From an uncultured Bacilli bacterium (lineage in GTDB: Bacteria > Bacillota_I > Bacilli_A > RF39 > UBA660), in NCBI GenBank assembly GCA_910589375.1, contig CAJUTK010000002.1, positions 323,188 through 387,187 on the forward strand: 64,000 bases of DNA, given 5' to 3'. The notes beneath the pieces are model-generated. The model worked only from the letters and a program-made list of their open reading frames with translations, had not been told where the DNA came from and did not search any database. Below, one piece after another: positions 20,986 through 28,830 of the stretch (position 1 is the stretch's first letter; every line of letters starts with the position of its first letter). The position numbers were made by a program, and so were the translations under genes.

Positions 20986-21834
20986 ATGAACATAACCTTG
21001 AATTCAGTGGGGAACTCTCCAAAAACTTTTCATTTTCTAGACAATAGGACTGAAAATTCAAGTTTCTATAGTAAATTTTCTCATAGCTACAGTATGCAGA
21101 AAAACTATTTTTATTTAGAAAGAGCATTAGAAATTCCTTTTGGGGATTCTATTGTAGAGGGAAATTTTACTGTTTACAATATCAATATTTTAGAAGATGA
21201 TTTTATGAGTGCCTTTAAATTAGGCATGCATAATAGATGGAACTCTAAATTGAGAGAATCCTTTGATCCTGCTATTAATCCTTCTTTCTTTGAATCTTTA
21301 ATGACCCAGGAAGATTTAGAAAAAATAGAGTCTACTCTATACGCCGTCTTCAAACAATATGGTGAATTAGGATTAGAACTTGTTAGAACATTTAATTTAG
21401 CGCATGCTATTTGTGATTCTTGTCATTATATTGCTATTGATGATAAAGAGGATAAATATGATTTAGAAAGTTCAAATGGGAAAAAGATATTATACATAGA
21501 TGCAGATGCATTTGATCCTATTAGTCGCACGTTACAGGCATTAAGCTGTGATGATTTTGCTTATCATCCTAATGAGAATGTAAAAAGTGCGTTATTTGCT
21601 ATGCCATATTTATTATATAGAGGAGAGAATATGGTAAGTGAGCATGAGGTAAGAATGCTATTAAGAGAGATAGAGTATTCTATGAAGCATCCTGTAAAGC
21701 AAGAATTAGATAGAGATACTTACCATGAGGCATTAGGGATTGCAAGAAGCTTATTTTTAAAATATAATGAGGACTTAATTCCTAAAAAGGAAGCTCCTAA
21801 ACAATATAAAAAAGAGGAACCAAAAGATTCCTAA
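20986..21834 (+). CDS. hypothetical protein
   Basis: 282-aa ORF with RBS GAGGAGG. Confidence 0.45.
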   Translation: MNITLNSVGNSPKTFHFLDNRTENSSFYSKFSHSYSMQKNYFYLERALEIPFGDSIVEGNFTVYNINILEDDFMSAFKLGMHNRWNSKLRESFDPAINPSFFESLMTQEDLEKIESTLYAVFKQYGELGLELVRTFNLAHAICDSCHYIAIDDKEDKYDLESSNGKKILYIDADAFDPISRTLQALSCDDFAYHPNENVKSALFAMPYLLYRGENMVSEHEVRMLLREIEYSMKHPVKQELDRDTYHEALGIARSLFLKYNEDLIPKKEAPKQYKKEEPKDS

Positions 21835-21893
21835 ATTTTTGAATAAAACAAAAGGGATTTTATAATGGTCTCTTTTTTTGCGAAATTTAGTTA

Positions 21894-21922
21894 TTGACAA
21901 ATACTCTCATTTGCACTATAAT
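21894..21922 (+). promoter_or_regulatory. consensus sigma-A promoter (TTGACA-17-TATAAT) driving the T-box leader
   Basis: TTGACA at 21894-21899, 17-nt spacer, TATAAT at 21917-21922. Confidence 0.8.
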
Positions 21923-21929
21923 GAATTCA

Positions 21930-22180
21930 TAAGCGTTTTGACGTGGGAGAAGTAAAAATAAAAACGAGTTTAAGCGAGTTAGGTATGGTGAGAGCTAACA
22001 ATGACGTTTATTTTGAATAACACCCACTAGTTGTTGAACTGAAACAATAGTAAGTTTAATCGGAAGTAATCCGTTACCACATTACACAACTTTAATAGAA
22101 GTTGATGAAGTGGCCAAGTGTATTGGCAATTTGGGTGGCACCGCGGATTAGATTCGTCCCATAATAGGACGAAATAGTGT
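21930..22180 (+). promoter_or_regulatory. T-box riboswitch leader with a tRNA-Asn specifier (AAC at 22019-22021 followed by A); T-box sequence at 22128-22146; terminator hairpin at 22151-22175
   Basis: AATTTGGGTGGCACCGCGG matches the T-box consensus AATTAGGGTGGTACCGCGG at 17/19 positions; the variable bulge base in UGGC is complementary to the discriminator G of the downstream tRNA-Asn; the terminator (GATTCGTCC...GGACGAA) shares its 5' arm with the antiterminator 3' strand; Stem I GUGGG...CCCAC carries an AAUAACA loop. Confidence 0.8.
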
Positions 22181-22184
22181 ATTT

Positions 22185-22260
22185 GCTCAATTAGCTCAGT
22201 TGGTAGAGCATCCGGCTGTTAACCGGCAGGTCGTAGGTCCGAGTCCTACATTGAGCGCCA
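22185..22260 (+). tRNA. tRNA-Asn (anticodon GUU), CCA encoded
   Basis: manual cloverleaf: acceptor GCTCAAT/ATTGAGC, D-arm AGCTCAGTTGGTAGAGC, anticodon loop CTGTTAA, T-arm GTAGGTCCGAGTCCTAC, discriminator G, CCA. Confidence 0.9.
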
Positions 22261-22267
22261 TTTTGTT

Positions 22268-22343
22268 GCCTGATTAGCTCAGTTGGTAGAGCATCCGGCT
22301 GTTAACCGGCAGGTCGTAGGTCCGAGTCCTACATCAGGCGCCA
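22268..22343 (+). tRNA. tRNA-Asn (anticodon GUU), second tandem copy, CCA encoded
   Basis: identical to the first copy except for the acceptor stem (GCCTGAT/ATCAGGC). Confidence 0.9.
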
Positions 22344-22357
22344 TTAGAATATAAAAT

Positions 22358-22390
22358 AAGTCCTATGTTTTTAGGACTTATTTTTATTTA
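22358..22390 (+). terminator. intrinsic terminator-like hairpin between the tRNA-Asn genes and gatC (possibly leaky, or a processing site)
   Basis: AAGTCCTA-tgttttt-TAGGACTT followed by ATTTTTATTT. Confidence 0.6.
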
Positions 22391-22404
22391 TATAAGGAGG
22401 AGCT

Positions 22405-22710
22405 ATGGAAAGAAAATTTACAAAAAAAATGGTAGACGATTATGCAGATAAATTACTAATTGGTCTAACAGAAGAAGAAAACAAGATGGTATTAGAGGAA
22501 TTTGATATTATTGATGCCCAAATCGATATTATTAATTCTATACCTGATATTAGTGAAGTAACACCTATGACCCACTGTCTAGATGACTTTGTCTATGAGT
22601 TAAGAGAAGATGAGGACGATGAAGAAGGTTCTGTTCCAATCGATGACTTACTTTCTAACTGTGATGACTATGTAGGTGATGAAATTAGAGTACCAAAGGT
22701 GGTGGGATAA
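22405..22710 (+). CDS. gatC: aspartyl/glutamyl-tRNA(Asn/Gln) amidotransferase subunit C
   Basis: 101 aa, GatC-like; RBS AAGGAGGAG. Confidence 0.85.
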   Translation: MERKFTKKMVDDYADKLLIGLTEEENKMVLEEFDIIDAQIDIINSIPDISEVTPMTHCLDDFVYELREDEDDEEGSVPIDDLLSNCDDYVGDEIRVPKVVG

Positions 22711-24167
22711 TGAAATACATGGATAAAAGTATTAAAGAAATTCATGAAGTACTAAAAAATGGTGAAGTAAAATCAAAAGAATTAATTGAAGAATCATTAG
22801 AGAAATCAAAAGAAGTACAAGAGAAGTGTAATGCCTTTGTAACGATTTTAGAGGATGCTAAAGAAGTACCTGTTACAGATGATTTATTATCAGGAATTCC
22901 TTATGGAATTAAAGATAACTATAGTACCAAAGGAATATTAAGTACAGGTTCTAGTAATACCTTAAAAGACTATGTACCATTTTTTACCGCAACTGCAATA
23001 GAAAATCTAGAGAGTCATGGAGCAGTTGCTACCAATAAAACCGTATTAGATGAATTTGGTATGGGAGGAACTGGAACGACTGGTCATACAGGAATTGTAA
23101 AAAATCCATGGGATACTACTCGTATGTGTGCGGGATCTAGTGCTGGATCTGCCTGTGCGGTTGCTGCTGGAGTATATCCATATGCAACAGGATCTGATAC
23201 GGGAGACTCTATTCGTAAACCAGCAGCTTATTGTGGAATTGTCGGATATAAACCAACTTATGGAATGATATCTAGATATGGATTATTCCCATTTGCTTCT
23301 AGCCTAGATCACTGTGGAGTCCTTGCTCGTAGTGTAGAAGACGCTAGTATTGTCGTAGATGCTATGAAAGGTATCGATAAGAATGATATGACAAGTTGGG
23401 ATTCTAAAGATATTCATCTATATGATTCTTTAACAGGTGATGTTAAGGGTAAAAAAGTATGTACCATTAAAGAAATTAGTAATCCATCTATGTATCCAAA
23501 TGCTTCTTCAGAATTAAAAGAGCATTTAGAAAACTTCCAGAAAGCTTTAGAGCATTTTAAAGAATTAGGAGTAGAAGTAGAAGAAGTATCTGTAGATTCT
23601 AAATTATTAAATGCTTTAGCTTCTGTTTATGTTGTTATCTCTTGTGCGGAAGCAACTTCTAACATGTCTAATTTAACAGGAATTGTTTTTGGACCAAGAG
23701 CAAATGCGGATAACTATATTGATATGATGAAGAAATATCGTACAGAGGGATTTTCACCATTAATCAAAAGAAGATTTGTAATCGGTTCTTACGTGTTACA
23801 AGCAGAGAATAAAGAAAGATATTTCCACAATGCTCAAAGAGTAAGAAGATTACTAGTAGATCGTTGGAAAGAAATATTCAAAAGTTTTGATGCTGTTATC
23901 TTACCAGTAGGTAGTGGCCCTGCAAAACATTTAGATAATTCAGAAGATATTCTAGATGAAAATACAGGAGTATTAGAAGAACACTTACAGATTGGTAACT
24001 TTGGAGGATTCCCATCTATTACGATTCCAGATGGATTTGTAAGTGGACTTCCAGTAGGCCTTAATATTACAGGTAATTGTTATGATGATGTAAACGTATT
24101 AAACTTAGCCTATGCATTAGAATCTAGCATGCCTTATAAAAATCAAGTAGCAAAGGAGGAAAAGTAA
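22710..24167 (+). CDS. gatA: aspartyl/glutamyl-tRNA amidotransferase subunit A
   Basis: amidase signature (GGSSAGSACAVAAG...DTGDSIRKPAAYCG); overlaps gatC by 1 nt. Confidence 0.9.
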   Translation: MKYMDKSIKEIHEVLKNGEVKSKELIEESLEKSKEVQEKCNAFVTILEDAKEVPVTDDLLSGIPYGIKDNYSTKGILSTGSSNTLKDYVPFFTATAIENLESHGAVATNKTVLDEFGMGGTGTTGHTGIVKNPWDTTRMCAGSSAGSACAVAAGVYPYATGSDTGDSIRKPAAYCGIVGYKPTYGMISRYGLFPFASSLDHCGVLARSVEDASIVVDAMKGIDKNDMTSWDSKDIHLYDSLTGDVKGKKVCTIKEISNPSMYPNASSELKEHLENFQKALEHFKELGVEVEEVSVDSKLLNALASVYVVISCAEATSNMSNLTGIVFGPRANADNYIDMMKKYRTEGFSPLIKRRFVIGSYVLQAENKERYFHNAQRVRRLLVDRWKEIFKSFDAVILPVGSGPAKHLDNSEDILDENTGVLEEHLQIGNFGGFPSITIPDGFVSGLPVGLNITGNCYDDVNVLNLAYALESSMPYKNQVAKEEK

Positions 24168-25624
24168 TGGATAATTATCAAGTATTAATCGGTTTAGAGA
24201 TGCACTGTGAAATTAGCGAGACAAAAACTAAAGTATTTTCAAGCGCTAAAAACGGATACAGTGATACACCAAACTCTTATATTAGACCACTCGATATGGC
24301 TTTTCCAGGAACTTTGCCGGTTGTTAATAAAGAAGCAGTCGCACTTGCTTTAAAAGCAAGTATGATACTACACTGTTCACAACCAGAATATCTTTATTTT
24401 GAAAGAAAGAACTATTACTATCCAGATTTACCAAAAGGATATCAGATTACACAGGAGACAAAACCTGCACCAGTAGGTAGTTTTGGATATTTAGATTTCG
24501 ATTGTAAAGGAGAAACAAAAAGAGTACGTATCAATAACATTCACCTAGAAGAAGATGCTGCATCATCGGATCATTATCCAACATTTTCAACAATTGATTA
24601 TAACCGTGCTGGAGTGCCACTTCTAGAACTTGTTACAGAACCAGATATGCATTCAGCAGAAGAAGCAGTAGCCTTCCTAGAGACGATGAGGTCTATCTAC
24701 CAGTATGCAGGAATTAGTGAAGCAGATAGTAGAAAAGGACAGATTCGTTGTGATGTAAACGTATCTATTATGGAAAAAGATAAAGATCCATCAGACCCTA
24801 AAAACTGGGGAACCAAAGTAGAGATGAAAAACGTAAACTCTTTTGGTGGTGTAAGAGACGCTATCAACTATGAAATTGATAGACAAATTGCTTTAAAAGA
24901 AGATGGGACCTATGATGAGATGGAACAACAAACCCGTAGATGGGACGAAGATACTTTCTCAACCATCTATATGAGAAGTAAAGCCGATGCAATTGACTAC
25001 AAATACTTTGTAGAACCAAATATTCCAAAATTTAAAATCAGCGAATCTTGGCTAGAGAGCATTCGTGCTAGTATTCCAGAGCTTGCTTCTGAAAGAAAAG
25101 AAAAGTACATGAATGAATATAACTTATCAGAATATGATTCTACTATTCTAGTAAAAGAAAAAGCAATCTCTGACTTCTATGAAGAAGTAATTTCTCTAGG
25201 GGGAGAAGCAAAAGGTGCTGCAAATTGGTTAACTAGTGTTATTTTAGGATATCTAAATAAAGAAGAATTAGAAATGAAAGATTTATATCTTACTCCTAAA
25301 ATGTTAGTAGACCTAATGAATATGGTTCGAGATGGTAAGATTTCTTCAAAACAGAGTAAGCAAGTACTTTCTAAAGTATTAGAAGATAAAAAAGAACCTA
25401 GTGTTATTGTTGAAGAATTAGGAATGAAACAAATAGGAGACGATAAGACTATTCGTGATATCGTTGTTAAAGTATTAGATGAACACCCAGATTTAATAGA
25501 AGATCATAGAAAAGGAAAGAACACATTTGATTTCTTTGTAGGACAAGTAATGAAAGCCACTCGTGGACAAGCTAATCCAAGTTTAACGGCTGATATTATT
25601 AGAGAAGAAATTGATAAGAGATAG
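24167..25624 (+). CDS. gatB: aspartyl/glutamyl-tRNA amidotransferase subunit B
   Basis: YQVLIGLEMHCEI start region and the C-terminal GatB/YqeY-like domain. Confidence 0.9.
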   Translation: MDNYQVLIGLEMHCEISETKTKVFSSAKNGYSDTPNSYIRPLDMAFPGTLPVVNKEAVALALKASMILHCSQPEYLYFERKNYYYPDLPKGYQITQETKPAPVGSFGYLDFDCKGETKRVRINNIHLEEDAASSDHYPTFSTIDYNRAGVPLLELVTEPDMHSAEEAVAFLETMRSIYQYAGISEADSRKGQIRCDVNVSIMEKDKDPSDPKNWGTKVEMKNVNSFGGVRDAINYEIDRQIALKEDGTYDEMEQQTRRWDEDTFSTIYMRSKADAIDYKYFVEPNIPKFKISESWLESIRASIPELASERKEKYMNEYNLSEYDSTILVKEKAISDFYEEVISLGGEAKGAANWLTSVILGYLNKEELEMKDLYLTPKMLVDLMNMVRDGKISSKQSKQVLSKVLEDKKEPSVIVEELGMKQIGDDKTIRDIVVKVLDEHPDLIEDHRKGKNTFDFFVGQVMKATRGQANPSLTADIIREEIDKR

Positions 25625-25632
25625 GTGATAAT

Positions 25633-27012
25633 ATGATATTAGATATTAAAGAAATAGAAAATAAAAAAGACGACTATTTAAATAAAGAAGTAACTGTTCA
25701 AGGTTGGATTAGAAATCATCGTAAACAAAAAGAATTTGGTTTTATTGATTTTAGTGATGGAACTAGTTTCAATCATTTACAAGTGGTTTATGATAATAAA
25801 TTATCTAACTTTGATAGTATTACGAAACTACATATTGGAAGTGCGATTACGGTAACTGGAACACTCGTTCCTTCTCCAAAAGAAGGACAGGCTATGGAAC
25901 TTCAAGTAAGTAGTTTAGTACTAGAGGGAGACTGTCCAGAAGACTACCCAATACAACCAAAAAGACATACTCGTGAATTCTTAAGAGAATGTGCTTATTT
26001 AAGACCTAGAACCAACTTATTTCAAGCTGTATTTAGAGTAAGAAGTGTAGCAGCTCATGCTATTCATACTTATTTTCAAGAAAGAGGATACGTTTATTTC
26101 CATGCACCTATTATTACAGCAAGTGACTGTGAAGGGGCAGGAGAGATGTTTCAAGTAACAACTCTAGATTTAGAGAAGGTAGCCTCATCTGGAAAAGTAG
26201 ACTACGATAAAGACTTCTTTGGGAAACAAGCGGCATTAACCGTATCAGGACAATTACAAGCAGAAACGTTTGCGTTAGCGTACAAAAAAACGTATACCTT
26301 TGGACCAACTTTTAGAGCTGAAAATTCTAATACGAAAACACATGCTTCAGAATTTTGGATGATTGAGCCAGAAGTAGCGTTCTGTGATTTAAATGGGGAT
26401 ATGGATATCATGGAAGAGATGCTTAAATTTGTTGTTCAATATGTATTAGATCATTGTCCAGACGAAATTAAATTCTTTGATGAATTTGTAGAAAAGGGAT
26501 TAAAGGAAAAATTAGAGAAGTTAGTTGCTTCAGAATTTACTAGAATTGACCATGAAGAAGTTATCTCTATCTTAAAGAAAGCAGATGTGAAATGGGAATT
26601 TGAACCAGAGTATGGGGAAGATATTGCCAAAGAACATGAAAAATATATTACTGAATACTTTCATGGACCAGTATTTATTAAGAACTGGCCAAAAGATATT
26701 AAAGCCTTCTATATGAAACAAAACCCAGATGGCAAAACCGTTGCAGCAGTTGACCTTGAAGTTCCTGGTGCTGGAGAGTTAATGGGTGGTTCTGAGAGGG
26801 AAGCAGATTATGATAAGTTAGTAACTCGTATGAAAGAGATGAACATGTCTAGCGAGGGATTAGAATGGTACTTAAACTTACGTAAATACGGTGGTTGCGT
26901 ACATTCTGGTTTCGGTATGGGATTTGAAAGATTACTAATTTATTTAACAGGTGTTGAAAACATAAGAGACGTTATCCCTTATGCTAGAACACCAAGATCT
27001 TGCGAATTTTAA
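25633..27012 (+). CDS. asnS: asparagine--tRNA ligase
   Basis: 459 aa, class IIb; motif 2 FRAENSNTKTHASEFWMIEPE; motif 3 GGCVHSGFGMGFERL. Confidence 0.85.
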   Translation: MILDIKEIENKKDDYLNKEVTVQGWIRNHRKQKEFGFIDFSDGTSFNHLQVVYDNKLSNFDSITKLHIGSAITVTGTLVPSPKEGQAMELQVSSLVLEGDCPEDYPIQPKRHTREFLRECAYLRPRTNLFQAVFRVRSVAAHAIHTYFQERGYVYFHAPIITASDCEGAGEMFQVTTLDLEKVASSGKVDYDKDFFGKQAALTVSGQLQAETFALAYKKTYTFGPTFRAENSNTKTHASEFWMIEPEVAFCDLNGDMDIMEEMLKFVVQYVLDHCPDEIKFFDEFVEKGLKEKLEKLVASEFTRIDHEEVISILKKADVKWEFEPEYGEDIAKEHEKYITEYFHGPVFIKNWPKDIKAFYMKQNPDGKTVAAVDLEVPGAGELMGGSEREADYDKLVTRMKEMNMSSEGLEWYLNLRKYGGCVHSGFGMGFERLLIYLTGVENIRDVIPYARTPRSCEF

Positions 27013-27040
27013 ACTGAAAAAAATAAGGGGAGTGAAAGGG

Positions 27041-28783
27041 ATGAAAACAAAATATCGTACTATCTATTGTGGCAAAGTAAGTGAAGAAGAACTTGGAAAA
27101 GAAGTTCGTATTGCAGGATGGGTAGAAAATATAAGAGACCATGGAGGAGTAATATTTGTAGATATCAGAGATGAAGAAGGAACTGTTCAGGCTGTAAGTA
27201 ATGATGATTCCATATTCAAACATTTAACGCGTGAATCATCTGTTACGATTACTGGTACAGTTCGGAAAAGAAGCGAAGATGACTACAACCCAAGACTTAA
27301 AACAGGTACTGTTGAAATATTAGTATCTACTTTAGAAGTATTAGGAACTTCTTTAAATGAACTTCCATTTGAAGTAATGAGTTCTACTAGTGTATCAGAA
27401 GATATTCGTCTAAAGTATCGTTATTTAGATTTACGAAATGAAAAAGTTCATAGTAATATCAAATTACGTAGTGAACTACTAAAATTTCTTAGAAATAAAA
27501 TGGATACATTAGGGTTTACAGAAGTGCAAACTCCAATTATTACCGCTTCTAGTCCAGAAGGTGCTCGTGATTTTATTATTCCATCTCGTAAATTTAAAGG
27601 AAAATTCTATGCTTTACCACAAGCTCCACAAGTATTTAAAGAATTACTGATGGTAGGTGGTTTTGATAAGTATTATCAGATTGCTCCTTGTTTTAGAGAT
27701 GAGGATTGCCGCAGTGATCGGACATTAGAATTTTATCAATTAGATTTTGAAATGGCTTTTGTTAGTGAAGAAGATGTCTATGAGATAGGAGAAGAAGTCT
27801 TCTATGAAACTTTTAAACATTTTAGCGATAGAGAGATTAGTCCAAGACCATTTAGAAGAATTTCTTATCGAGATGCGATGCTAAAATATGGAACAGATAA
27901 GCCAGATTTACGAAATCCATTAGAGATTCAAGATATCAGTGAGTTATTTGTTAGTAGTGAATTTAAACCATTTAGAGGAAGTATCGTTCGTTCTATTACG
28001 GTAGATGGTATTGCTAGTTATCCAAATAGTTGGTTTAATGAAGTAGTAGATTATGCTTCTTCAATCGGTATGCCAGGTATTGGTTATTTAAGTGTAATGG
28101 AGGATAATACTTTTAAAGGACCTATTGATAAATTCTTGAAAGAGGAAGATAGAAAATTATTAATGGAAAAAGCTAATTTAAAAGTAGGTAGTGTCGTATT
28201 CTTTATTGCCGATAGAAAAGAATTAGTGGCTGCTAAAGAGGCAGGTATGATTCGTGCCTATTTAGGAAATAAATTAGATTTGATTGATAAGAATAAATAT
28301 GAATTCTGCATTATTAATAATTTCCCAATGTTTGAATACGATGAACAAACTCATAAATATGAATTCTGCCATAATCCATTTAGTATGCCTCATGGTGGGT
28401 TAGAAGGATTAGATAATAAGGATATCGATTCGATATTAGCTTATCAATATGACTTTGTATGTAATGGAAATGAGATGGCTAGTGGTGCCGTTCGTAATCA
28501 TGATATCAAGTGTTTAGAGAAAGCATTCTCTATCGTAGGCTATGATAAATCTGTATTAGAAACAAGATTTGCCTCTTTATATAATGCCTTCCAATTTGGA
28601 GCGCCTCCTCATGCAGGAATGGCTCCAGGAATAGATAGAATGTTAATGCTTTTAAAAGATGAACCAAACTTAAGAGAAGTGCAAGCATTTCCTATGAGTG
28701 TTAGTGGACAAGATATGATGATGAACTCACCTAGTGAAGTAACAGAAGAACAATTAAGAGAAGTTCATATTAAGATAAGATAA
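27041..28783 (+). CDS. aspS: aspartate--tRNA ligase, bacterial type (discriminating or non-discriminating cannot be told from sequence)
   Basis: QLDFEMAF and GAPPHAGMAPGIDRMLML motifs and the GAD insertion domain; preferred start MKTKYRT follows RBS AAGGGGAGTGAAAGGG (the track ORF starts at 26981). Confidence 0.85.
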   Translation: MKTKYRTIYCGKVSEEELGKEVRIAGWVENIRDHGGVIFVDIRDEEGTVQAVSNDDSIFKHLTRESSVTITGTVRKRSEDDYNPRLKTGTVEILVSTLEVLGTSLNELPFEVMSSTSVSEDIRLKYRYLDLRNEKVHSNIKLRSELLKFLRNKMDTLGFTEVQTPIITASSPEGARDFIIPSRKFKGKFYALPQAPQVFKELLMVGGFDKYYQIAPCFRDEDCRSDRTLEFYQLDFEMAFVSEEDVYEIGEEVFYETFKHFSDREISPRPFRRISYRDAMLKYGTDKPDLRNPLEIQDISELFVSSEFKPFRGSIVRSITVDGIASYPNSWFNEVVDYASSIGMPGIGYLSVMEDNTFKGPIDKFLKEEDRKLLMEKANLKVGSVVFFIADRKELVAAKEAGMIRAYLGNKLDLIDKNKYEFCIINNFPMFEYDEQTHKYEFCHNPFSMPHGGLEGLDNKDIDSILAYQYDFVCNGNEMASGAVRNHDIKCLEKAFSIVGYDKSVLETRFASLYNAFQFGAPPHAGMAPGIDRMLMLLKDEPNLREVQAFPMSVSGQDMMMNSPSEVTEEQLREVHIKIR

Positions 28784-28790
28784 AAAATAA

Positions 28791-28830
28791 AGGTCTATTT
28801 ACATTTATTTGTAAATAGACTTTTTATTTA
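28791..28830 (+). terminator. rho-independent terminator ending the gat-asnS-aspS operon
   Basis: GTCTATTTACA-tttatt-TGTAAATAGAC followed by a T-rich run. Confidence 0.8.

Follow-up and report, generated by a model that had tools for sequence, protein, structure and literature searches.

An asparagine T-box whose expression platform may be split around two tRNA-Asn genes in uncultured Bacilli

Within a 64,000-nucleotide (nt) stretch of an uncultured Bacilli genome (contig CAJUTK010000002.1, positions 323,188 to 387,187; hereafter the window), a T-box leader specific for asparagine is followed by two tandem tRNA-Asn genes and then by gatC-gatA-gatB-asnS-aspS. From the sequence, we propose that the expression platform of this T-box is split around the two tRNA genes, such that the tRNAs would be constitutive while gat, asnS and aspS would be switched at a terminator located behind them (terminator 2); we give this proposal an even chance of being correct. 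It departs from the preliminary description of the locus, in which a terminator ahead of the tRNA genes was thought to place both tRNAs under the control of the T-box that they bind, and in which it was left unclear whether the leader acts on the tRNAs only or also on the gat genes. The locus was inspected at positions 21500-22900, and promoter and terminator scans, Rfam, ARAGORN and NCBIfam were run; all features given below are on the forward (+) strand.

The leader is preceded by a sigma-70-type promoter (21894..21922; -35 TTGACA at 21894-21899, 17-nt spacer, -10 TATAAT at 21917-21922) that scores 12/12, a match unique within the inspected region in the promoter scan, and the expected start site (~21929) is position 1 of the T-box model. 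The sensor domain (21929..22164) matches model positions 1-219 of the Rfam covariance model RF00230 over its full length, with 122.7 bits against a gathering threshold of 93 (E 1.1e-26), and comprises Stem I with a GA/K-turn, the specifier loop, the distal platform, Stem II, Stem IIA/B, Stem III and the antiterminator. In the Rfam alignment, the specifier loop core GAA-U-AAC-A (22015..22022) presents the Asn codon AAC at 22019-22021 with the purine A next to it (22022), in agreement with the downstream genes (tRNA-Asn, gatCAB, asnS and aspS). According to the Rfam structure line, the antiterminator (22132..22161) pairs 22132-22135 with 22158-22161 and 22143-22147 with 22153-22157; it folds in isolation at -6.0 kcal/mol and carries the 7-nt bulge UGGCACC, of which UGGC (22136-22139) is complementary to G73-C-C-A of both downstream tRNAs, the variable C pairing with G73. 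Among relatives this variable base is C or U, either of which pairs with G. The consensus sigma-A promoter, the Asn T-box, its specifier and the match of the bulge to the discriminator and CCA of its own tRNAs had all been read from the letters alone in the preliminary description and are borne out by these scans, as are the two tRNA-Asn(GUU) genes directly behind the leader, on which ARAGORN and Rfam agree, with the gat genes further on, and the terminator-like hairpin after the second tRNA.

The departure from a canonical T-box lies in the helix that competes with the antiterminator. By RNA folding, this OFF-state helix (hairpin 1, 22153..22173) joins TTCGTCC (22153-22159) through the loop CATAATA to GGACGAA (22167-22173), and it folds with its flanks at -10.0 kcal/mol. 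It had been described as the T-box terminator: the hairpin does exist and does share its 5' arm with the antiterminator, but its 7 base pairs (bp) are followed by AUAGUGUAUUU without a U tract, and the terminator scan of the window region did not call it, so that the competing helix is not the intrinsic terminator that characterises a T-box of the transcriptional type. The same scan predicts an intrinsic terminator behind the second tRNA (terminator 2, 22353..22389), in which AAAATAAGTCCTA (22353-22365) and TAGGACTTATTTT (22372-22384) form a 13-bp stem around the loop TGTTTT (22353-22384 as a whole), followed by TATTT with at least 5 T in the next 8 nt; this hairpin folds at -17.4 kcal/mol. 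The promoter scan of 22345-28557 returned zero sites scoring at least 10/12 between the tRNAs and 28557, and gatC-gatA-gatB-asnS-aspS therefore depend on transcription through the leader, both tRNAs and terminator 2.

The layout is widespread. A scan of one genome per GTDB species for the T-box motif GGTGGNACCRCG followed at 40-70 nt by the common tRNA D-arm TAGCTCAGNNGGNAGAGC returned at least 119 loci (counted as 8-kb loci), and about 90 of those listed read Asn T-box, tRNA-Asn, then gatCAB or asnS. Behind the motif, tRNA-Asn(GUU) is present in 1-4 tandem copies in 82 listed loci with a complete tRNA, and in at least 8 more at contig ends; G73 and an encoded CCA are common to all these tRNA-Asn, and GAA-N-AAC-R is found at the correct spacing in almost every leader. 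By tblastn, gatC-gatA-gatB and then asnS and/or aspS follow in 64 listed loci, plus one in which gatC is too divergent to detect; among the remaining listed loci asnS is directly next in 4, the locus is truncated in 11 and the arrangement is different in 2. GatA identity to the window ranges from 53% to 99% across the listed loci, most of which come from metagenome-assembled genomes (MAGs) of uncultured Bacilli, Tenericutes or Erysipelotrichaceae, and the closest genome among the matches listed is "uncultured Bacilli bacterium MGBC118066" (L032, CAJTZU010000001.1; 98-100% protein identity). The same layout was found in 17 further metagenome contigs in a separate scan with a motif for the class B loci defined below, and the pattern of the genome scan gave 0 matches in a viral contig collection. 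Chance matches occur among the genome-scan hits, namely among those in Sphingobacterium, Muribaculaceae, Chromatiaceae and Nitriliruptoraceae; in Sphingobacterium, the 3' end of tRNA-Phe itself reads GGTGGCACCA and then CG. Judged from this distribution, the layout is far beyond chance.

The sensor is conserved together with the layout. When 76 distinct homologous leaders are aligned with MAFFT, the GAA and AAC columns do not vary, 28 of the 38 consensus pairs show compensatory double changes and RNAalifold recovers the T-box architecture; Rfam finds full-length T-boxes at 119-144 bits in the 8 Asn loci tested (9 hits, as L016 has two). On this comparative evidence the sensor is a T-box under purifying selection.

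The Asn loci fall into two classes, whose counts are given among the matches listed. In class A (40 loci), the bulge is UGGU in 40/40 and a long canonical terminator stands before the tRNAs (for example ACAGUUAUUCGUCC...GGAUG..UAACUGU, then U6-9). In class B, to which 43 genome loci including the window belong, 37/43 have a UGGC bulge, an own promoter with a perfect or near-perfect TTGACA-17-TATAAT occupies the same place in nearly all loci, most loci have two tRNAs, and the helix competing with the antiterminator is short and lacks a U tract, its trailer being A-rich in several loci (for example AAAAAUAAAACU). The longest uninterrupted T stretch ahead of the tRNA spans 1-4 nt in the 43 class B loci versus 5-9 nt in the 40 class A loci, and 3 nt in the window; this measure was used in place of the U count after automatically extracted hairpins, which was dropped as unreliable (RNAfold pairs the class A U tracts with upstream A's). 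Past the last tRNA and ahead of the ribosome-binding site (RBS), nearly all loci have a hairpin and 4-8 consecutive T. The comparison suggests that the U-tract loss at class B hairpin 1 is not a genome-wide habit, because class B loci carry canonical terminators after the tRNAs and because L104 has a second T-box, before a protein gene, with a canonical U7 terminator. Nor is the class B T-box decaying, since both its antiterminator pairing (97.7% of cells paired; 0/500 shuffles as good) and its hairpin-1 core are conserved: of 39 class B sequences, 87-100% retain the core pairs, versus 34-52% when the partner is slid. In the class B covariation test, hairpin 1 had no more double changes than shuffles, a result that speaks to conservation only and that is expected because the 5' arm is fixed by the antiterminator. 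An extension of hairpin 1 to the first two tRNA nucleotides (GCGGAUUA/UGUAUUUGC) was considered as a sequestrator of the RNase P site and rejected as evidence, because the GCG(G/A):(U/C)UGC pairing arises in almost every locus of both classes; it does so because ACCGCG and the tRNA 5' GC are conserved.

The strand released from hairpin 1 finds a second partner beyond the tRNAs. Segment B (22164..22184) runs from the loop side of hairpin 1 through its 3' arm into the tRNA-1 leader; it is complementary to segment C' (22347..22366), made up of the tRNA-2 trailer and the terminator-2 5' arm. The pairing forms two helices: P1, between AUAGGAC (22164-22170) and GUCCUAU (22360-22366), and P2, between UGUAUUU (22178-22184) and GAAUAUA (22347-22353). 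In the window, the B:C' duplex reaches -13.4 kcal/mol versus -6.4 +/- 2.2 when shuffled (z -3.2, p 0.007; RNAduplex, 1000 dinucleotide shuffles). The same test gave a median z of -2.98 in 33 class B genome loci, with p<=0.05 in 25/33 and a median energy of -12.8 versus -6.3 shuffled, and a median z of -3.3 in the 17 new class B metagenome loci, with p<=0.05 in 17/17; in 15 class A genome loci, the median z was -0.27 and p<=0.05 was reached in 1/15.

The paired sequences themselves vary by lineage (UUACUAUU/GAUAGUAA, AAACAAAAA/UUUUUGUUU, GUGUAAU/AUUAC), and L138, with a wholly different terminator stem (AACUAGUU), retains a 10-bp B:C' helix. Own-locus pairing beats cross-locus pairing (sum -420.9 versus a permuted mean of -292, p<1/5000), and the positions flanking the GGAC/GUCC core co-vary (p 0.008), with the core in matched forms: GGAC goes with GUCC in 21/21, AGAC with GUCU in 8/8 and GGC or GGU with GCC in 2. 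In 33/34 class B loci, at least 3 nt of the hairpin-1 3' arm and at least 3 nt of the terminator-2 5' arm lie within the duplex; with A the antiterminator 3' strand, C the 5' arm and D the 3' arm of terminator 2, this means that A:B, B:C' and C:D cannot all coexist. With both tRNAs constrained to their cloverleaf folds, hairpin 1 plus terminator 2 (OFF) evaluate to -75.9 kcal/mol and antiterminator, P1 and P2 (ON) to -68.9 kcal/mol, a gap that, on this model, tRNA binding could plausibly bridge.

These features can be read as a distal-terminator relay, a three-step chain from the antiterminator through hairpin 1 and the long-range helix to the distal terminator that spans two complete tRNA genes; we would be no more surprised to see this chain upheld than overturned. 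The strong promoter would fire constitutively to yield one transcript with the T-box leader, both tRNA-Asn, terminator 2 and gatC-gatA-gatB-asnS-aspS. As hairpin 1 has lost its U tract, polymerase would pass it and both tRNAs would be made whatever the state of the T-box. With charged tRNA-Asn (OFF), A would pair with B in hairpin 1, leaving C free to pair with D, and transcription would stop at ~22385-22390, before gatC. With uncharged tRNA-Asn (ON), the tRNA bound at the AAC specifier and the UGGC bulge would lock A in the antiterminator; single-stranded B would then capture the emerging tRNA-2 trailer and C (P2 and P1), D would be left without a partner, and polymerase would read through into gatCAB-asnS-aspS. 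Leak through terminator 2 would provide basal expression of aspS, asnS and gatCAB; GatCAB is probably needed also for Gln-tRNA(Gln) in Bacilli-like genomes. Three elements of this scheme are inferred: the failure of hairpin 1 to terminate, the formation of B:C' in vivo with blockage of terminator 2, and a basal level set by the terminator-2 leak.

Such a relay would account for a conserved hairpin without a U tract, for a promoterless strong terminator before essential genes, for the sequence conservation of terminator 2, for the restriction of B:C' pairing to class B, for the perfect promoter and for the switch from UGGU to UGGC. On the last point, we speculate that the fourth Watson-Crick pair of UGGC helps the complex to last while ~200 nt are transcribed. 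With constitutive tRNAs, tRNA synthesis would no longer depend on the same tRNA, which removes the circuit problem of a tRNA gated by itself. The autoregulation of the two tRNAs suggested in the preliminary description finds no support in a 7-bp hairpin 1 with a T run of 3 and canonical terminators placed after the tRNAs, and the regulatory output proposed there for the window is, on these sequence grounds, probably wrong. As to the target that it had left unclear, the B:C' complementarity and covariation point to control of gatCAB-asnS-aspS with constitutive tRNAs.

Several points weigh against the relay. In Bacilli, NusA or NusG can bring about partial termination even at a weak hairpin whose trailer is poor in U, the termination efficiencies used here are derived from sequence, and the same-organism control for canonical T-box terminators is one locus, L104. 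Individually, 8 of the 33 class B genome loci are not significant for B:C', and the core covariation reflects few clade-level events. P2 tested alone is marginal (p 0.04); tested in fixed register as a coaxial extension of the acceptor stem, no offset was significant, and its position is variable. The 7 bp of P1 in the window face the 13 bp of terminator 2, and branch migration could let D take the place of B. Some 175 nt separate B from C', and cleavage by RNase P at 22184/22185 would leave the two segments on separate RNAs. Finally, B and D are direct repeats (UAGGAC), so that part of P1 could be inherited from a duplication.

The reading closest to the preliminary description is classical leaky attenuation, in which hairpin 1 would be a weak intrinsic or factor-assisted terminator, uncharged tRNA-Asn would raise everything downstream including its own tRNA genes (a positive autoregulatory loop) and terminator 2 would be a constitutive attenuator setting a high tRNA-to-mRNA ratio. 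It fits a T-box and a hairpin 1 that are intact and mutually exclusive, as well as the 40 class A relatives with a canonical terminator at the position of hairpin 1, which mean that T-box control of tRNA-Asn genes exists in the family; class B trailers are moderately U-rich in some loci (for example L049 and L007), and a leaky terminator would suit essential downstream genes. However, the stem in the window is followed by AUAGUGUA and that of several class B loci by the A-rich trailers mentioned above, in addition to hairpin 1 not being called by the terminator scan. Leaky attenuation also leaves unexplained why a GUCC-type terminator-2 sequence is kept across lineages with GatA at ~55% identity and why B:C' complementarity is restricted to class B, and a tRNA-dependent switch on what may be the cell's own source of that tRNA would be risky, as low tRNA means low inducer. 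We regard it as possible, though clearly less probable than the relay.

The long-range helix could alternatively be a leader-trailer processing stalk like those around rRNAs, which would excise the tRNA pair via RNase III or another nuclease and leave the T-box weak or idle. The helix does bracket the tRNAs (in the window, P2 abuts tRNA 1 at -1 and starts 4 nt past the CCA of tRNA 2), its sequence varies while its pairing is kept, and the tRNAs must be cut from a tRNA-mRNA co-transcript. Class A would need the same processing, yet lacks the helix in the test above; a stalk has no need for the hairpin-1 3' arm and the terminator-2 5' arm, both of which are included in 33/34 loci, and 14-19 bp with internal loops are short for RNase III. 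Nor would an idle T-box retain an invariant specifier and an antiterminator paired at 97.7%, and we consider the stalk unlikely. More improbable still, to the point where we would hardly expect it, is that the locus is a relic: an ordinary T-box terminator would have taken up the tRNA genes between its stem and its U tract, with duplication of UAGGAC, and the T-box would now be decaying. The direct repeats B (AUAGGACGAA) and D (UUAGGACUUA), the resemblance of A (UUCGUCC) to C (AAGUCCU) and the U tract now found 3' of D are what such an insertion would leave behind; against it, the layout is common to lineages with GatA identity down to 53%, class B T-boxes are at full strength (120-135 bits), and leader and B:C' both covary where neutral leftovers would have diverged.

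Downstream of terminator 2, the operon opens with the RBS of gatC (AAGGAGG, 22394-22400). The gatC gene (22405..22710) is identified by NCBIfam TIGR00135 (E 1e-8, under the curated cut-off), and its slot before gatA is kept in at least 64 loci; gatA (22710..24167) matches TIGR00132 (E 2.9e-131; 438 bits, slightly under the 481-bit cut-off), gatB (24167..25624) NF004012 (564.6 bits, cut-off 338), asnS (asparagine--tRNA ligase, 25633..27012) NF003037 (632 bits, cut-off 414) and aspS (bacterial-type aspartate--tRNA ligase, longest open reading frame (ORF) 26981..28783) NF001750 (721 bits, cut-off 443). The operon would thus include AspRS and GatCAB by family assignment. The longest aspS ORF overlaps asnS by 32 nt (26981-27012) and homology to AspRS begins at residue 24 (~27050); translation of aspS probably begins further downstream, which would make the overlap an ORF-calling artefact. 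A terminator-like hairpin of 15 pairs followed by TATTT (28789..28824) closes the operon. Across the window (1-64000), guanine-cytosine (GC) content is ~28-36% and GC skew is positive in almost all 2-kb bins; between 17 and 32 kb almost every ORF of at least 80 amino acids is on the + strand, which fits a leading-strand segment of a low-GC Bacilli-like genome.

The two tRNA-Asn(GUU) genes, copy 1 (22185..22260; Rfam tRNA 69 bits; acceptor stem GCUCAAU/AUUGAGC, G73, encoded CCA, T-loop UCCGAGU) and copy 2 (22268..22343; 68.4 bits; acceptor stem GCCUGAU/AUCAGGC), are the sole tRNA genes called by ARAGORN in the window. They differ solely in the acceptor stem, and each exact sequence is found in at least 17 loci. 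Both have C55 in the T-loop UCCGAGU and a G1-C72 pair; U55 is near-universal in tRNA T-loops and a U1-A72 pair is a bacterial GatCAB determinant. The copies may be good GatCAB substrates or may be ordinary elongator tRNAs.

Other arrangements were seen among the relatives. Many class A loci lack an own promoter and lie directly behind tRNA-Ile(GAU)-tRNA-Glu(UUC) on the same strand (for example L010, L011, L017, L020 and L061); this position in a tRNA operon without a good promoter in between implies that the T-box acts as an internal conditional terminator of the tRNA operon. L106 has an additional tRNA-Asn upstream of its T-box. For class A, an autoregulatory loop, with the T-box gating the genes of its own ligand, is plausible. 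In some class A loci (L031, L116, L108, L065, L067 and L106), the post-tRNA terminator hairpins contain AGGUCGUAGGU...CCUAC, which matches tRNA-Asn variable-loop/T-arm sequence, and by their sequence these hairpins look like remnants of a truncated tRNA copy recruited as terminator. In L016 (3340-3967) and L038, two complete T-boxes flank one tRNA-Asn ahead of gatC, the first at 119 bits and the second at 137 bits with a U8 terminator; only ~10 nt separate the tRNA from the second T-box, which leaves no room for a promoter. This double T-box reaches the goal of class B by another route.

Analogues for other amino acids were also observed. A Phe counterpart (L025, L033, L066 and L110; also L021, L053, L046 and L068) has the specifier GAA-U-UUC-A, a UGGU bulge and a canonical U-tract terminator, followed by tRNA-Phe(GAA) and ORFs of 345 and 807 amino acids; the second matches pheT from its N-terminus (NCBIfam) and the first is probably pheS. 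It shares the design of T-box, cognate tRNA and cognate synthetase; among the Phe counterparts only L053 attains the Rfam T-box threshold. In Ruminococcus-type MAGs (L037, L085, L001 and L045), a T-box and its terminator precede a tRNA-like element of 93-131 nt, with alaS next. D and T arms are normal in this element, which has the acceptor GUGCCGU/ACGGUAC with G3:U70, A73 and CCA, the AlaRS identity set; a long insertion takes the place of the anticodon arm, and Rfam tRNA scores are 42-44 bits. The element may mimic tRNA-Ala within the alaS leader.

Compared with canonical transcriptional T-boxes (Bacillus subtilis tyrS and glyQS; RF00230), the leader in the window has the same Stem I specifier followed by a purine, distal platform, Stem II, Stem IIA/B and Stem III, the same 7-nt bulge pairing UGGN with NCCA of the uncharged tRNA and the same sharing of an antiterminator strand with a competing hairpin. 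It differs in that this hairpin has no U tract, in that the next genes are those of the ligand tRNA rather than a protein gene, and in that a separate canonical terminator stands ~180 nt on, with a 5' arm complementary to the hairpin-1 3' arm. The closest functional relative is the Asn-responsive NT-box reportedly described in 2012 and 2013 by Saad and colleagues before the AspRS and GatCAB operon of Clostridium acetobutylicum (cited in PMC4574755 and PMC4206432). That operon is said to have no tRNA genes and a standard terminator. Both place an Asn T-box before an operon for tRNA-dependent Asn-tRNA(Asn) formation, whereas the window has two tRNA-Asn between sensor and gatC, includes asnS and has its terminator displaced past the tRNAs. 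Multi-helix attenuators such as the trp leader (1:2/2:3/3:4) and the PyrR and TRAP anti-antiterminators also use mutually exclusive helices to carry an upstream decision to a terminator, as would the chain bulge:A / A:B / B:C' / C:D in the window; here, however, the signal would be a tRNA on a T-box rather than ribosome position or a protein, and two independently folding tRNAs lie inside the chain. The E. coli unit thrU-tyrU-glyT-thrT-tufB is a tRNA-mRNA co-transcript that similarly combines promoter-proximal tRNAs and a translation-factor mRNA, split by RNase P and other nucleases, but it lacks a riboswitch, and no sensor within it takes its tRNAs as ligand. In the translational T-boxes of Actinobacteria (PMC7778990), the OFF helix likewise lacks a U tract and is a sequestrator that changes the availability of a downstream strand; those T-boxes sequester the Shine-Dalgarno sequence, whereas the strand in the window appears to be an anti-terminator of a distal intrinsic terminator.

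Among the T-box targets recorded in large surveys, 62% are synthetases, 18% biosynthesis and 12% transport genes, alongside unknowns, and tRNA genes are absent (PMC2494555; also PMC3766115), and TBDB sets targets by the ontology of the downstream gene (PMC7778990). In full-text searches we found no report of a T-box upstream of tRNA genes, an absence from the searched literature that is not proof of novelty. The layout was probably overlooked since annotation pipelines assign the nearest protein gene as the target.

T-boxes are the textbook case of an RNA sensing whether a tRNA is charged, and the targets known for them encode proteins; here, across about a hundred gut species, Bacilli or Mollicutes-like and mostly uncultured, the sensor is coupled to the genes encoding the very tRNA that it senses. 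Where the logic gates the tRNA genes themselves, as in class A, inducer and product are one, and one may ask how a cell escapes dead-lock. If true, the class B relay would be a new type of riboswitch expression platform, a natural split-terminator design, and class B, class A and the Phe and Ala-like analogues together would form an unrecognised group of operons that run from T-box to cognate tRNA to cognate synthetase. The locus also offers an experimental handle on the balance of tRNA supply, GatCAB-dependent Asn/Gln formation, AsnRS and AspRS in reduced genomes.

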